DNA of 7,041 nucleotides from the IMG/VR virus record IMGVR_UViG_2534682175_000009; one strand, given 5' to 3'. Of this stretch, positions 2,350-7,041 are shown one piece after another. Source of the DNA: a virus (taxonomy: Duplodnaviria; Heunggongvirae; Uroviricota; Caudoviricetes). Made by a program: the position numbers and the translations under genes. How positions within the stretch are numbered: position 1 is the stretch's first letter; each line of letters starts with the position of its first letter. The notes under the pieces are model-generated. The model was not told where the DNA came from and made no database searches. It worked only from the letters and a program-made list of their open reading frames with translations.

Positions 2350-2360
2350 GTGGGGTGAAT

Positions 2361-5300
2361 ATGGCAGTAAAGATTTCAGGTGTACTGAAAGACGGCACAG
2401 GAAAACCAGTACAGAACTGCACAATCCAGCTGAAAGCAAAACGTAACAGCACCACGGTGGTGGTGAACACGCTGGCCTCAGAAAATCCGGATGAAGCCGG
2501 GCGTTACAGCATGGACGTTGAGTACGGTCAGTACAGCGTTATTCTGTTGGTGGAAGGATTCCCGCCGTCACATGCCGGGACCATCACCGTGTATGAAGAT
2601 TCTCAACCCGGTACGCTGAATGATTTTCTCGGTGCCATGACGGAGGATGATGCCCGTCCGGAGGCACTGCGCCGTTTTGAACTGATGGTGGAAGAGGTGG
2701 CGCGTAACGCGTCCGTAGTGGCACAGAACACGGCAGCCGCGAAGAAGTCAGCCGGCGATGCCAGCACATCTGCCCGTGAGGCGGCAACCCATGCGACTGA
2801 TGCTGCAGATTCAGCACGTGCAGCCAGCACGTCAGCCGGACAGGCCGCTTCGTCGGCTCAGTCAGCGTCTTCCAGCGCAGGAACGGCATCAACAAAGGCC
2901 ACTGAAGCCTCAAAAAGTGCTGCCGCTGCAGAGTCCTCAAAAAGCGTGGCAGCTACCAGTGCCGGTGCCGCGAAAACGTCAGAAACGAATGCTGCAGCGT
3001 CACAACAATCAGCAGCCACTTCTGCATCCACCGCGACTACGAAAGCGTCAGAAGCTGCCACCTCAGCCCGGGATGCGTCGGCTTCAAAAGAGGCGGCAAA
3101 ATCATCAGAAACGAACGCATCCTCGAGCGCCAGTAGCGCAGCTTCCTCGGCAACGGCGGCAGCAAATTCCGCGAAGGCGGCAAAAACGTCCGAGACGAAC
3201 GCCAGGTCTTCTGAGACGGCAGCGGGACAGAGCGCCTCAGCTGCGGCAGGCTCAAAAACAGCGGCTGCGTCGTCTGCCAGTGCCGCGTCAACAAGTGCCG
3301 GGCAGGCCTCAGCCAGTGCCACCGCCGCCGGAAAATCGGCAGAAAGCGCCGCATCATCCGCTTCAACAGCCACAACGAAGGCTGGCGAAGCCACTGAGCA
3401 GGCCACGGCAGCAGCGAGGTCAGCTTCCGCAGCGAAGACATCCGAAACGAACGCGAAAGCGTCGGAAACCAGCGCAGAATCCTCAAAAACGGCAGCGGCA
3501 TCGTCCGCCAGTTCGGCGGCGTCATCGGCCTCATCGGCGTCTGCTTCAAAAGATGAGGCGACCAGACAAGCGTCAGCAGCGAAGGGCAGCGCCACGACGG
3601 CATCCACGAAGGCAACAGAGGCTGCTGGCAGTGCGACGGCGGCAGCACAGAGCAAGAGTACGGCAGAATCCGCAGCAACGCGCGCCGAGACAGCAGCAAA
3701 ACGGGCAGAGGATATTGCATCCGCTGTGGCGCTTGAGGATGCGAGCACGACGAAAAAGGGGATAGTACAGCTCAGTAGTGCGACTAACAGCACTTCCGAG
3801 TCACTGGCGGCAACACCAAAAGCCGTTAAGGCCGCGTATGACCTGGCTAACGGGAAATACACCGCACAGGATGCAACGACAGCACAGAAAGGGATAATCC
3901 AGCTAAGCAGCGCGACCAACAGCACGTCTGAAACGCTGGCGGCAACGCCAAAGGCAGTAAAAGCAGCCAATGACAATGCTGAGAAACGTCTGCAGAAAGA
4001 TCAGAACGGTGCGGATATCCCTGGCAAAGACACCTTTACGAAAAATATTGGTGCCTGCCGTGCCTTTGGTGGGTCAGTAAGCACAACAACAGGAAACTGG
4101 ACGACTGCACAGTTTATCGAGTGGCTGGATTCTCAGGGAGCATTTAACCATCCCTACTGGATGTGCAAGGGTTCCTGGTCTTATGGCAATAATAAAATCA
4201 TTACTGATACTGACTGCGGTAATATTCATCTCGCCGGAGCTGTCATTGAAGTAATGGGGATAAAGTCAGCGATGACGATCCGCATTACCACTCCGACCAC
4301 CTCCACTGGTGGTGGAACAACTAACGCCCAGTTTACCTATATTAATCACGGAACAGATTATTCACCTGGCTGGCGAAGGGACTATAACTCCAGAAATAAG
4401 CCAACGGCATCAGAGATCGGGGCGTTACCGTCAGGTGGAACAGCAGTATCATCAGTTAATCTGTCTTCAAAAGGTCGGGTAACCGCGCTGACAGACAATA
4501 CGCAGGGGGCAACAGGTCTTGAGTTATACGAGGTGTATAACAACGGATATCCAACAGCGTATGGAAATATCATTCACCTGAAAGGGATGACAGCCGTTGG
4601 CGAAGGTGAGTTACTCATCGGCTGGAGTGGTACAAGCGGTGCTCATGCTCCGGCATTTATTCGTTCACGACGGGATACGACCGACGCAAACTGGTCGCCG
4701 TGGGCGCAGCTTTACACCTCGGCTCATCCTCCTGCAGAGTTTTATCCAGTCGGTGCACCAATCCCGTGGCCATCAGATAACGTTCCGTCTGGTTATGCCC
4801 TGATGCAGGGGCAGACTTTTGACAAATCTGCATACCCGAAACTTGCAGCCGCTTATCCGTCAGGCGTGATCCCTGATATGCGTAGCTGGACGATTAAGGG
4901 CAAGCCTGCCAGTGGTCGGGCCGTATTGTCTCAGGAACAGGACGGCATTAAATCGCACACCCACAGCGCCAGCGTATCCAGTACGGATTTGGGGACGAAA
5001 ACCACATCGTCGTTTGATTACGGCACTAAATCCACGAATAACACCGGGGCGCATACGCACAGTGTGAGCGGTACAGCCGCAAGTGCCGGAAACCATACTC
5101 ATAGTGTCACAGGCGCATCAGCAGTCAGCCAGTGGTCACAAAATGGGTCAGTACATAAGGTTGTGTCTGCGGCCAGTGTGAATACAAGTGCTGCAGGAGC
5201 GCACACTCATAGTGTCAGCGGCACAGCTGCATCTGCAGGTGCTCACGCACATACTGTCGGTATTGGTGCTCATACGCACTCTGTTTCGATTGGCTCACAT

Positions 5301-5387
5301 GGACACACCATCACCGTTAACGCTGCGGGTAACGCGGAAAACACCGTCAAAAACATCGCATTTAACTACATTGTGAGGCTTGCATAA
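2361..5387 (+). CDS. stf: Side tail fibre protein Stf, intact full-length, mosaic
   Basis: The ORF track opens at GTG 2355, but the ATG at 2361 gives [26 protein letters not shown]..., the lambda Stf N-terminus as I recall it, and GGGGTG upstream serves as ribosome-binding site. The C-terminus (...[37 protein letters not shown]...[31 protein letters not shown]) also matches my recollection of lambda Stf. The middle part differs. Stop TAA 5385-5387. Confidence 0.92.
2740..3740 (+). repeat. Ala/Ser/Thr-rich degenerate repeat region encoding the Stf shaft
   Basis: About 330 codons made almost entirely of A/S/T/K/E/G with recurring motifs: AAKTSETNA three times (about nt 2967, 3176, 3430) plus [11 protein letters not shown], and TSAGQAS/SAAS blocks. 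The low complexity leaves two other frames stop-free here, one sense and one antisense. Confidence 0.8.
3756..3833 (+). repeat. Conserved tail-fibre linker motif, copy 1 ([26 protein letters not shown])
   Basis: Read directly from the stf translation. This motif is, to my knowledge, a conserved block shared among otherwise unrelated phage tail fibre genes. Confidence 0.75.
3888..3965 (+). repeat. Conserved tail-fibre linker motif, copy 2 ([26 protein letters not shown])
   Basis: Second copy 44 codons downstream of the first. The protein is nearly identical (one conservative I/V change and one S/T change), but the DNA differs at many third-codon positions (e.g. GTACAGCTCAGTAGTGCGACT vs ATCCAGCTAAGCAGCGCGACC). 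Confidence 0.75.
4950..5310 (+). repeat. His-x-His repeat array in the Stf C-terminal tip
   Basis: Recurring HxH motifs in Gly/Ser/Ala/Thr context: [73 protein letters not shown]. The sub-repeats are imperfect at the DNA level. Confidence 0.8.
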
Positions 5388-5971
5388 TGGCATTCAGAAT
5401 GAGTGAACAACCACGGACCATAAAAATTTATAATCTGCTGGCCGGAACTAATGAATTTATTGGTGAAGGTGATGCATATATTCCGCCTCATACAGGTCTG
5501 CCAGCAAACAGTACCGATATTGCACCGCCAGATATTCCGGCAGGCTTCGTGGCTGTTTTCAACAGTGATGAGGCATCGTGGCATCTCGTTGAAGACCATC
5601 GGGGTAAAACGGTTTATGACGTAGCGTCAGGGGACGCGTTATTTATTTCTGAACTCGGTCCGTTACCGGAAAATGTTACCTGGTTATCGCCGGAAGGGGA
5701 GTTTCAGAAGTGGAACGGCACAGCCTGGGTGAAAGATGCAGAAGCAGAAAAACTGTTCCGGATCCGGGAGGCGGAAGAAACAAAAAACAGCCTGATGCAG
5801 GTAGCCAGTGAGCATATAGCGCCACTTCAGGATGCTGTAGATCTGGAGATCGCAACGGAGGAAGAAACCTCATTGCTGGAAGCCTGGAAAAAATATCGGG
5901 TGTTGCTGAACCGTGTTAATACAACAACTGCACCGGATATTGAATGGCCAACAGTACCCATTATCGAATAG
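5387..5971 (+). CDS. tfa: Tail fibre assembly protein (chaperone) Tfa
   Basis: 194 codons. ATG 5387-5389 overlaps the stf TAA by one base (TAATG), and the GAGG 8-11 nt upstream can act as Shine-Dalgarno. The translation ([78 protein letters not shown]...) matches my recollection of lambda Tfa. Stop TAG 5969-5971. Confidence 0.92.
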
Positions 5972-5982
5972 TGCATTACGAA

Positions 5983-6015
5983 CTGCAGGATATTATATGG
6001 GATAATATTCTGCAG
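5983..6015. repeat. Inverted repeat between convergent genes; candidate terminator for the late tail transcript
   Basis: CTGCAGGATATTAT (5983-5996) and ATAATATTCTGCAG (6002-6015) pair at 13 of 14 positions around a 5-nt spacer ATGGG. On the + strand it is followed by TTTATT. On the - strand the following sequence is not T-rich, so it is a weaker terminator for the cargo gene. It sits exactly at the G+C composition break. Confidence 0.4.
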
Positions 6016-6044
6016 TTTATTGGGGCTGTATTTTAAAAAGGTGT

Positions 6045-7041
6045 TTATTTTGAGTGAATTATCACCTTGTTTTTTCCGGTTCTTTTGGCTTGATATAACG
6101 CTTTATCGGCATTGACTAACATTTCAGATGGGCTGAGATTATTCTCTTTTGAAGTAAAGCAACCAATACTGACAGTTATTTTCTCAGGTCCATGCGATAA
6201 TAATTTTTCCGAGCATTGCTCTTCAATGTTTTTTCTGATTCGCTCTGCAATTGATAGCAAGAGCTTTTGAGTATTACCTTTAATGATAATACCGAACTCC
6301 TCACCGCCTAAGCGCCCTAATATATCCTCTTTCCTGATGGATTTTTTTATTATTCTGGTAACCATTACTATGACTTGATCACCCATATGATGCCCCCATT
6401 TGTCATTGATGCTTTTGAAACTGTCAATATCTAACATTATTACTGAGAAATCATGGTGTTTTGATATATTCTTCAATGAGTCAATAAAGTATCTTCTATT
6501 GTATGTATTCGTTAGTGGATCATGAATTGCCATATGATTAGCATGATTTAATTTCCTGAAAATATAATACATGAGTGTTGAAATGATATAAATCATTGAT
6601 ATCAATTCAAGAAATTTTGTCATGTACCATGCAGGATGGGATTTATCAATAAAATACAATAAAATTAGATTATTGCATACTGACACTATACTAATAAGTA
6701 TTATACACAACCATATTTTTGAGTAATTACGTATGCTGATGCATGAGCTGATAAGTAATACAAGCCAAAATACTGATATTATTTTGGTGTACACGATATT
6801 CCACGTCGGCAAATGACGATTCAGCGAGTATTGTATAATATTAAGACTATATTTTATATTGTCACTGCTTAGATTTTTTGCTACAAACGGAGTAATAAAA
6901 AGAATTAATATTGACAAAACAACAATTATTATGTTTCTTTTATCTTCTAAAACACTTTTATTTTTAACATTGGTGGAATAAACAGCCAGAAAGATTATAG
7001 ATATAAAGCTGAACTGACGGAATAGATAATATATTGCGATA
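6045..7041 (-). CDS. Multi-pass membrane protein with C-terminal GGDEF domain (predicted diguanylate cyclase); N-terminus beyond window
   Basis: The - strand translation has hallmark GGDEF-domain motifs: DIDSFKSINDKWGHHMGD (metal/substrate-binding region), the active-site motif RLGGEEFGI (nt 6294-6308), and an RxxD inhibitory-site motif (RKED) exactly five residues upstream of GGEEF. Preceding it are at least three hydrophobic helices (IISVFWLVLLISSCISI, IWLCIILISIVSV, FLELISMIYIISTLMYYIF). The ORF track starts at TTG 6917, but the same frame has no stop up to base 7041 and encodes more hydrophobic sequence (...FSFISIIFLAVYS...), so the gene probably starts outside the window. Stop TAA on the - strand at 6045-6047. 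Strongly AT-rich, unlike the tail genes. Confidence 0.85.
   Translation of the reverse strand, partial: IAIYYLFRQFSFISIIFLAVYSTNVKNKSVLEDKRNIIIVVLSILILFITPFVAKNLSSDNIKYSLNIIQYSLNRHLPTWNIVYTKIISVFWLVLLISSCISIRNYSKIWLCIILISIVSVCNNLILLYFIDKSHPAWYMTKFLELISMIYIISTLMYYIFRKLNHANHMAIHDPLTNTYNRRYFIDSLKNISKHHDFSVIMLDIDSFKSINDKWGHHMGDQVIVMVTRIIKKSIRKEDILGRLGGEEFGIIIKGNTQKLLLSIAERIRKNIEEQCSEKLLSHGPEKITVSIGCFTSKENNLSPSEMLVNADKALYQAKRTGKNKVIIHSK

Follow-up and report, generated by a model that had tools for sequence, protein, structure and literature searches.

A sharp compositional break after tfa at the right end of a lambda-like prophage and the AT-rich gene dgcX beyond it

Morons were reportedly described by Juhala et al. 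2000, and the genes lom and bor of phage lambda are examples of them. They have been defined by a deviant G+C content, a promoter of their own and a terminator of their own (PMC3594210). A gene of Escherichia coli SE11 lying beside a prophage, to the left of uspF-ompN, was named dgcX by Richter et al. 2014 in a passage of PMC4287979 which also reports the RxxD motif of its product. In the same source, a reporter fusion is stated to have shown that the dgcX upstream region gives the strongest expression among the diguanylate cyclase genes of E. coli, via RpoD and RpoS; published work found expression of ycdT to be very weak and that of dgcX to be very strong. According to the account given in PMC10459773, DgcX raises cellulose and rdar biofilm formation, and the protein is listed for E. 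coli O104:H4, 55989, H10407, E24377A and SE11 in the parts of PMC4287979 and PMC10459773 concerned with its occurrence; its diguanylate cyclase activity, its MASE4-GGDEF architecture and the location of its gene beside tail-fibre genes of the lambda type are likewise taken from these sources.

The DNA analysed here, referred to as the window, is a stretch of 7,041 nucleotides from a tailed virus record of IMG/VR, in which a break in base composition just after the tail fibre assembly gene tfa had been pointed out by a first-pass annotation made from the sequence alone. We found that the break is real and highly significant. It is very probably the left edge of an AT-rich cargo cassette ('moron') of about 1.7 kb, which follows tfa in a lambda-like prophage, holds dgcX alone and is the counterpart of the slot occupied by ea47 in lambda.

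The late genes and dgcX in the window

The window covers the right-hand end of a lambda-like prophage's late operon, and its best whole-window genome match is 97.3% identical. Four plus-strand late genes were recognised: J, of which the portion for the C-terminal region of the tail tip protein is present (38-1627; Pfam Ig_J, Ig_J_second, Phage_Tail_Tip and Ig_GpJ_C, with a gpJ annotation in SE11); lom, for an Ail/Lom outer-membrane beta-barrel protein (1697-2296; Ail_Lom over the full length, E 1.7e-119); the side tail fibre gene stf (2355-5387; phage_tail_N, Phage_fiber_2 and Collar, with an stfR annotation in SE11); and tfa, the last conserved gene of the late module (5387-5971; Caudo_TAP, E 1.4e-43), which is 90-92% identical to lambda tfa. 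The J reading frame as listed opens at an internal GTG, and the true start of the gene is upstream of the window. No tandem repeats were found in the window. The sole above-threshold Rfam match, IS009, lies inside the tfa coding sequence and does not explain the break.

Beyond a spacer of 73 nt, an AT-rich gene runs on the minus strand, convergent with tfa (6045-7041, stop codon at 6045-6047). Its strand had not been given in the first-pass annotation. The frame is open to the last base, so that the gene is cut by the end of the window. Positions 5900-7041 show 100% nucleotide identity to E. coli SE11 (NC_011415), in which the gene measures 1332 bp, encodes 443 amino acids and lies between tfa and uspF-ompN. 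SE11 was taken as the continuation of the window (the coordinate in the SE11 locus, L001, being the window position plus 6614), and everything to the right of 7041 was read from SE11 and other genomes rather than from the window's own strain. The window holds the 3' two-thirds of the gene, that is, residues 113-443 of 443, comprising the second half of the MASE4 domain (PF17158, E 1.7e-12) and the complete GGDEF domain (PF00990, E 1.5e-44); in the full SE11 protein, residues 1-273 contain several hydrophobic segments. By motif mapping, the catalytic (A-site) motif GGEEF is at residues 357-361 (6294-6308, minus strand), aligning with GGEEF in diguanylate cyclases of solved structure, PleD among them, and RKED, an RxxD product-inhibition (I-site) motif, is at residues 348-351 (6324-6335, minus strand), 5 residues before it. 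From these matches the AT-rich gene is identified as the published dgcX, with a predicted MASE4-GGDEF diguanylate cyclase as its product in which GGEEF and RxxD are both intact.

The dgcX slot and its place inside the prophage

The change in composition coincides with the end of synteny, as the first-pass annotation had supposed. Megablast matches to 43 phage records, lambda included, covered tfa only and ended at 5949-5959, and homology to the Rac prophage of K-12 ended at 5953. High similarity to the tfa genes of lambda and Rac fades in the last 20 nt or so of tfa, from about 5950; by a more sensitive alignment, lambda could be followed further, at about 60-65%, past the tfa stop codon and across a hairpin at 5980-6018, designated hairpin A. 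On the far side, homology to K-12 Rac (L002 10728 onward) restarts at L001 14247, and homology to strains with dgcX elsewhere in the chromosome extends to L001 14287. The interval L001 14247-14287 is a second hairpin, hairpin B, and matches lambda 24162-24200, the gap between ea47 and ea31; the stretch bearing it is homologous to lambda 24162-24265. The AT-rich segment, from the tfa stop codon to hairpin B, measures about 1.67 kb with a G+C content of 0.305. Since the same two flanks enclose ea47 in lambda and pinR-ynaE-ynaM in K-12 Rac, the segment takes the place of these genes. The position had been equated with the start of the lambda b region, and this is upheld both by the far-end match and by the lambda P arm and core GCTTTTTTATACTAA, which come next in strains carrying the element at the lambda site. 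The layout, extended with SE11, is thus tfa, hairpin A, dgcX on the minus strand, about 260 nt with a promoter-like site, hairpin B, the integrase arm-site region, the att core and the host gene uspF.

The lambda att core GCTTTTTTATACTAA was not found in the window with up to 3 mismatches allowed, and the window ends before any att site. A flanking repeat, which the first-pass annotation had proposed to look for downstream, was found in SE11: an exact att repeat of 26 nt, TTGTTCAGGTTGTATTGTTCTTTCTT (43 nt at 93%), is present at the ttcA/intR junction and, to the right of dgcX, at L001 14478-14503. The right-hand copy is the ttcC remnant at which Rac ends in K-12; some 2.5 kb separate it from the tfa stop codon on its left, and the dgcX start codon is 488 nt inside it. 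The element between the two repeats is about 52.6 kb long and contains intR, xisR, recET, an immunity region and lysis, terminase, capsid and tail genes. Its arm is of the Rac type, and the DNA from dgcX to the repeat also occurs within the annotated Rac prophage of K-12. Two strains (L003 and L005) have the cassette at the lambda site; in both, hairpin B is followed by a segment of about 270 nt with 88-89% identity to lambda 27471-27742, annotated Int binding sites included, then by the exact core GCTTTTTTATACTAA and, beyond it, by ybhB-bioA. We concluded that the dgcX cassette is inside an att-bounded prophage and not merely beside one. In two integration systems, Rac/ttcA and lambda attB, dgcX has tfa on one side and an intact phage arm on the other. 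It would therefore leave with the phage in normal excision, and aberrant excision is not needed for its present-day mobility.

The gene was detected in 771 of 5426 complete E. coli genomes (14%), 767 of which have at least 80% of it. A 241-nt probe spanning the junction of the tfa 3' end, hairpin A and the dgcX 3' end was fully covered in 767 genomes; with these two counts being equal, essentially every intact copy (767/767) appears to share the left junction to the tfa 3' end. This junction survives even in decayed elements with just 96-177 nt of tfa, at the argW-dsdC site and in a DLP12-like remnant at attB. The right junction, comprising the promoter region and hairpin B, was fully covered in 677 genomes at megablast sensitivity. 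Three chromosomal sites were seen, namely lambda attB, the Rac site and argW-dsdC, all of which are among the sites given for dgcX in PMC10459773. Megablast and tblastn searches of 50,697 records of isolated phages returned no dgcX, the matches being to tfa and to distant GGDEF domains with less than 40% identity, none of which covered 80% of the protein; the gene is thus not one conserved at this position in most lambda-like phages, lambda itself having ea47 there. IMG/VR yielded 17 matches, all fragments on contigs of 4-25 kb, many of which end at or inside dgcX. Among GTDB species representatives the gene was present in E. coli only, apart from a 2.5-kb contig with 98% identity in a 'Bacillota' metagenome-assembled genome, which we took as contamination.

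These data bear on a suggestion published in PMC4287979, in the passage dealing with the prophage, by which dgcX would be a host gene next to the prophage, and not a gene of the phage itself, taken up through aberrant excision and hitchhiking by specialised transduction. The arrangement from which an ancient capture of this kind could start does exist, in the form of a chromosomal relative with 67% identity near the right end of prophage DLP12 (see below). As a description of the present locus the suggestion is nevertheless unlikely, for the gene is inside the att repeats, between tfa and an intact P arm, in both integration systems; an excision of the gal type would swap the P arm for bacterial DNA, and this was not seen; and no phage-free native dgcX locus was found, with all 767 intact copies appearing to be joined to the end of tfa. 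Specialised transduction therefore fails for the present arrangement and survives as a possible ancient origin. For the locus as it now stands we favour a cargo cassette that belongs to the phage.

Base composition on the two sides of the break

In a sliding window, the G+C content was 0.50-0.56 across 4600-5900, fell to 0.365 at 5901-6100, was 0.335-0.375 in windows covering 6001-6500, which correspond to the GGDEF part of dgcX, and 0.27-0.31 across 6400-7000, which correspond to the MASE4 part. By maximum likelihood, a single change point for the whole window was placed after base 5959, with a G+C content of 0.536 on its left and 0.31 on its right. The log-likelihood ratio was 95.6; when blocks of 30 nt were shuffled 200 times, it averaged 4.7 and never exceeded 14.5. 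With the analysis limited to 5001-7041, the change point was placed after 5989. The step from 0.54 to 0.31, and with it the left edge of the cassette, thus lies at 5959-5989, where the homology of the chromosomal 67% relative also starts. The break can be placed at the end of tfa, because the tfa stop codon is at 5969-5971; that part of the first-pass annotation stands, and its estimate of about 6020 was some 30-60 nt too far to the right.

The entire dgcX gene has a G+C content of 0.297, as against 0.48-0.55 in J, lom, stf and tfa. The described shift towards the AT-ending codons ATA, AAA and TTA was also seen in the counts: per 100 codons, these occur 7.2, 7.5 and 3.6 times in the AT-rich gene and 0-1.5, 1.5-3.6 and 0-1.5 times in the four late genes. 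In the AT-rich gene, isoleucine is encoded by ATA, ATT and ATC 24, 19 and 10 times, and leucine by TTA and CTG 12 and 2 times, respectively. Contrary to the first-pass annotation, long A/T runs do not distinguish the right side, since the longest pure runs are 14, 13 and 12 nt there and 15, 13 and 11 nt on the left. Lambda has a like step, from 0.489 in tfa to 0.314 in ea47, so the step appears to be a general property of the slot after tfa.

Could the low G+C content simply follow from an abundance of Ile, Leu, Phe, Asn and Lys in a membrane protein, with no separate ancestry? The MASE4 part is indeed the most AT-rich part of the gene, and G+C at the second codon position is 0.286. Yet the content is about 0.30 at each codon position, and synonymous choice is shifted too, with 0.32 at the third position; the non-coding flanks are as AT-rich (0.34 and 0.33, the former being the 73-nt spacer between tfa and dgcX); the K-12 genes dgcT and cdgI, which code for proteins of the same architecture, have 0.386 and 0.385; and it is at the break that homology to other phages stops. 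With third positions and non-coding flanks this low and same-architecture paralogues at 0.386, the amino-acid make-up is insufficient for the step, and we consider such an explanation very improbable.

A prophage end (attR) at the break, with host chromosome beyond it, is hardly credible. Among the structural genes of lambda-like phages tfa is the last to be conserved, and attR would come close to it if the b region were short or deleted, but no att core lies at 5972-6044 and no lambda core in the window even at 3 mismatches, the SE11 repeat is 488 nt past the dgcX start, the DNA leading up to it is also inside K-12 Rac, a lambda-type P arm and core follow dgcX in the lambda-site strains, and the cassette is found at three or more chromosomal sites, always with the tfa end.

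The break is thus best regarded as the left edge of the cargo cassette. The first-pass annotation had called it a junction between the late module and acquired DNA of different origin; composition and synteny both do break there, and the different origin could not be assigned to a donor, because every close relative of dgcX is in Escherichia. Neither the GTDB species representatives nor a large protein search pointed to a low-G+C donor taxon.

Hairpins, relatives and comparison with known systems

Hairpin A (5980-6018) is predicted to form a 17-pair stem with the core CTGCAGGATATTAT / ATAATATTCTGCAG and a 5-nt loop, with folding energies of -22.1 kcal/mol on the plus strand and -15.8 kcal/mol on the minus strand. 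It sits between the convergent genes tfa and dgcX and aligns with a hairpin just after lambda tfa. Across eight members of its family, 5 of 13 stem pairs are changed on both sides and still paired. TTTATT comes next on the plus strand, and the hairpin could therefore end the late transcript; on the dgcX strand TTCGTAATG follows, a poor U-tract. Hairpin B consists of 40 nt common to all compared loci, CCGCAGCACG...CGTGCTGCGG, with a predicted energy of -24.7 kcal/mol, and is followed on the minus strand by TTTTCTTTAT. A simple terminator scan called neither hairpin a terminator. From the predicted folds, hairpin A is likely to be a two-way transcription stop, and hairpin B could halt leftward transcripts from the int side ahead of the dgcX promoter. 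A near-consensus promoter-like site (TTGACA, a 17-nt spacer and TAGTAT) lies 73 nt upstream of the dgcX ATG, and would place the transcription start about 65 nt before the ATG. Four alleles with up to 10% divergence elsewhere have one and the same sequence in the region of its second hexamer; consensus promoter matches are commonplace in this AT-rich DNA, 15 being found and 12 expected.

Taken together, these features suggest how the cassette may work. Hairpins A and B would shield dgcX from late (rightward) and int-side (leftward) phage transcription, so that dgcX would be expressed in the lysogen, being transcribed towards tfa from the repressed prophage. DgcX, a MASE4-GGDEF membrane protein, would make c-di-GMP and raise its level, and the gene would thereby act as a lysogenic-conversion gene pushing the host towards matrix production. 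The cassette would move with the phage by normal excision and lysogeny, and may pass between phages through recombination in the conserved flanks.

A large protein search revealed a graded clade of relatives in Escherichia alone, with identities of 99, 94, 85-80, 68-67 and 52-51%; beyond it came proteins of Citrobacter (42-44%) and DgcT and CdgI (about 37%). GGEEF and RxxD are kept in all clade members examined. The alleles at 99, 94, 85 and 51% identity are all at the right ends of prophages. The 85% variant is 75 nt from tfa at the end of a contractile-tail prophage near torT, and it differs hardly at all from SE11 in its upstream region and hairpin B. The 51% variant occurs at the Rac site within an insert of 2.4 kb that has a copy of a duplicated Rac arm/att segment of about 195 nt on either side; we read this as the remnant of a second, tandem prophage. 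The 67% variant is the sole chromosomal relative of the lineage. It stands in place of envY between ybcH-nfrA-nfrB and the right end of DLP12, adjoins folD where DLP12 is absent, and has the same orientation relative to the phage late genes. It shares 74% nucleotide identity with the dgcX cassette over a stretch that opens 12 nt before the ATG and closes 4 nt past the position of the tfa stop codon; a counterpart of hairpin A is present and tfa is absent.

This variant is directly downstream of nfrB-nfrA-ybcH, a c-di-GMP-activated polysaccharide system serving phage N4 as its receptor, and NfrB is a c-di-GMP-activated glycosyltransferase required for N4 infection (PMC8669469, PMC8669472). We found no published link between dgcX and nfrB in the literature. 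It is a speculation that the nfr-linked locus was the source of the phage-borne gene and that DgcX acts on NfrB. A wider idea, quite unlikely in our judgement, is that the MASE4-GGDEF lineage has long been phage cargo at the tail-fibre end, in a slot with covarying hairpins, and may act on NfrB or a similar surface-glycan synthase, altering the phage susceptibility of the lysogen; biofilm formation would then be a side effect and the hairpins sites of cassette exchange.

Since the dgcX gene and its association with a prophage are already published, the additions made here are incremental. Relative to the passages of PMC4287979 and PMC10459773 that treat dgcX, they are the cassette bounds at nucleotide level, the location inside the att repeats and the tfa junction, which on probe coverage appears to be on every intact copy in the 5426 genomes; the equivalence with the ea47 slot and the diverged relatives are further small additions. 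DgcX is an extra, very strongly expressed putative diguanylate cyclase found in the lineage behind the 2011 O104:H4 outbreak and in many ETEC, EAEC and commensal strains. With its gene inside an att-bounded prophage, any such lysogen could spread it by ordinary lysogeny, and the invariant tfa-hairpin-dgcX junction allows dgcX to be recognised in draft genomes. The break itself is the boundary of a horizontally acquired module and not a new biological system.

Among proteins, the nearest described counterparts of DgcX are DgcT (YcdT) and CdgI (YeaI) of K-12, which have the MASE4-GGDEF architecture and 38% amino-acid identity to DgcX over about 410-425 residues. GGEEF and RxxD are kept in DgcT, whereas CdgI has a degenerate EGEVF site. 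Both genes differ from dgcX in being at fixed chromosomal loci and, as given above, in having a higher G+C content.

Among loci, the ea47 slot of lambda (J02459 22558-24200) is alike in that a minus-strand gene of about 1.2-1.3 kb with a G+C content near 0.30 directly follows tfa (0.314 for ea47, 0.297 for dgcX), in that related hairpins form the bounds, and in that dispensable accessory DNA precedes attP. The cargo is unrelated, ea47 in the one case and a predicted diguanylate cyclase in the other. Unlike lambda, the dgcX phages are without ea31 and ea59, and therefore their P arm comes almost directly after hairpin B.

Like a moron, dgcX is a single gene present in some related phages only, other phages having ea47 or pinR-ynaE-ynaM between the same flanks; and its G+C content deviates from that of its neighbours (0.297-0.31 against 0.48-0.55). 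A promoter and a terminator of its own are suggested by the predicted promoter-like site and the flanking terminator-like hairpin, and, as with morons, the gene would be expressed in the lysogen and alter a host phenotype. It differs from a pure moron insertion in that its terminators are predicted ones and in that the slot always holds some cargo, so dgcX is a replacement rather than a pure insertion.

Hairpins and arm region bordering the cargo slot

The slot 3' of tfa, which in the window holds the AT-rich cargo gene dgcX, is bracketed by members of a related family of hairpins having the form C[C/T]GCAG...CTGC[G/A]G. Copies were found at 5980-6018 in the window (hairpin A), at 14251-14287 in the E. 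coli SE11 locus L001 (hairpin B, at the far end of the dgcX cassette), at 10728-10770 in the K-12 Rac prophage (L002), and at 1573-1609 and 3163-3200 in lambda (L006), where one copy lies 3' of tfa and the second between ea47 and ea31. In the stem of this family, 5 of the 13 pairs are altered on both sides with pairing kept. In 201 phage records, mostly of lambda-like and Stx phages, hairpin B is present together with about 60 nt of flank, as a rule close to the right end of the prophage.

Between hairpin B and the att core, the right-hand att repeat of the SE11 prophage, the Rac-type arm carries four GGGGCAAAA-type repeats (L001 14325-14380). AAATGGGGCAAA was found in this arm and also near attL. 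The repeats and AAATGGGGCAAA are probably integrase arm-type binding sites, and the 57-aa "hypothetical protein" annotated over the arm repeats (L001 14265-14438) is probably spurious.

Rfam matches and the low-complexity part of stf

The Rfam family IS009 (RF02111) matches the window at 5730-5928 on the plus strand with 225.9 bits, and the whole match falls in the coding sequence of tfa, in its 3' half. The family need not be an RNA gene; its model was probably built from tfa remnants that appear intergenic in K-12. A sub-threshold match to the Shigella sRNA CssrB (44 bits versus a gathering score of 76) was also observed at L001 14187-14282 (+), overlapping hairpin B and the region upstream of dgcX.

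The centre of stf (window 2700-3800) codes for an Ala/Ser/Thr-rich low-complexity stretch with a G+C of 0.59-0.65 and a strong A-over-T skew, in which Tandem Repeats Finder reported no array. The stretch gives long spurious ORFs in other frames, at 2758-3765 (+), 2858-3976 (-) and 3037-3720 (-).

Other occurrences and relatives of DgcX

A DgcX of 98% identity occurs at L027 768-2096, on a contig of 2.5 kb assigned to a MAG labelled "Bacillota bacterium"; the contig is almost certainly mis-binned E. coli DNA. A relative of 67% identity (L030/L032 6001-7335) is a chromosomal gene directly 3' of nfrB-nfrA-ybcH, where it stands in place of envY and adjoins the right end of DLP12. Its homology with the cassette that holds dgcX starts 4 nt past the point at which the tfa stop codon would lie. 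At the Rac site, a 51%-identity relative lies within a 2.4-kb insert (L033 5029-7434) bounded by a duplicated Rac arm/att segment of about 195 nt, and the insert looks like what is left of the right end of another Rac-type prophage, once present in tandem. An 85%-identity variant (L036-L038 6001-7992) and a tfa gene lie 75 nt apart at the end of a prophage near torT that encodes a contractile tail (Baseplate_J, sheath initiator), and the tfa-dgcX unit is therefore not restricted to phages with lambda-like tails.
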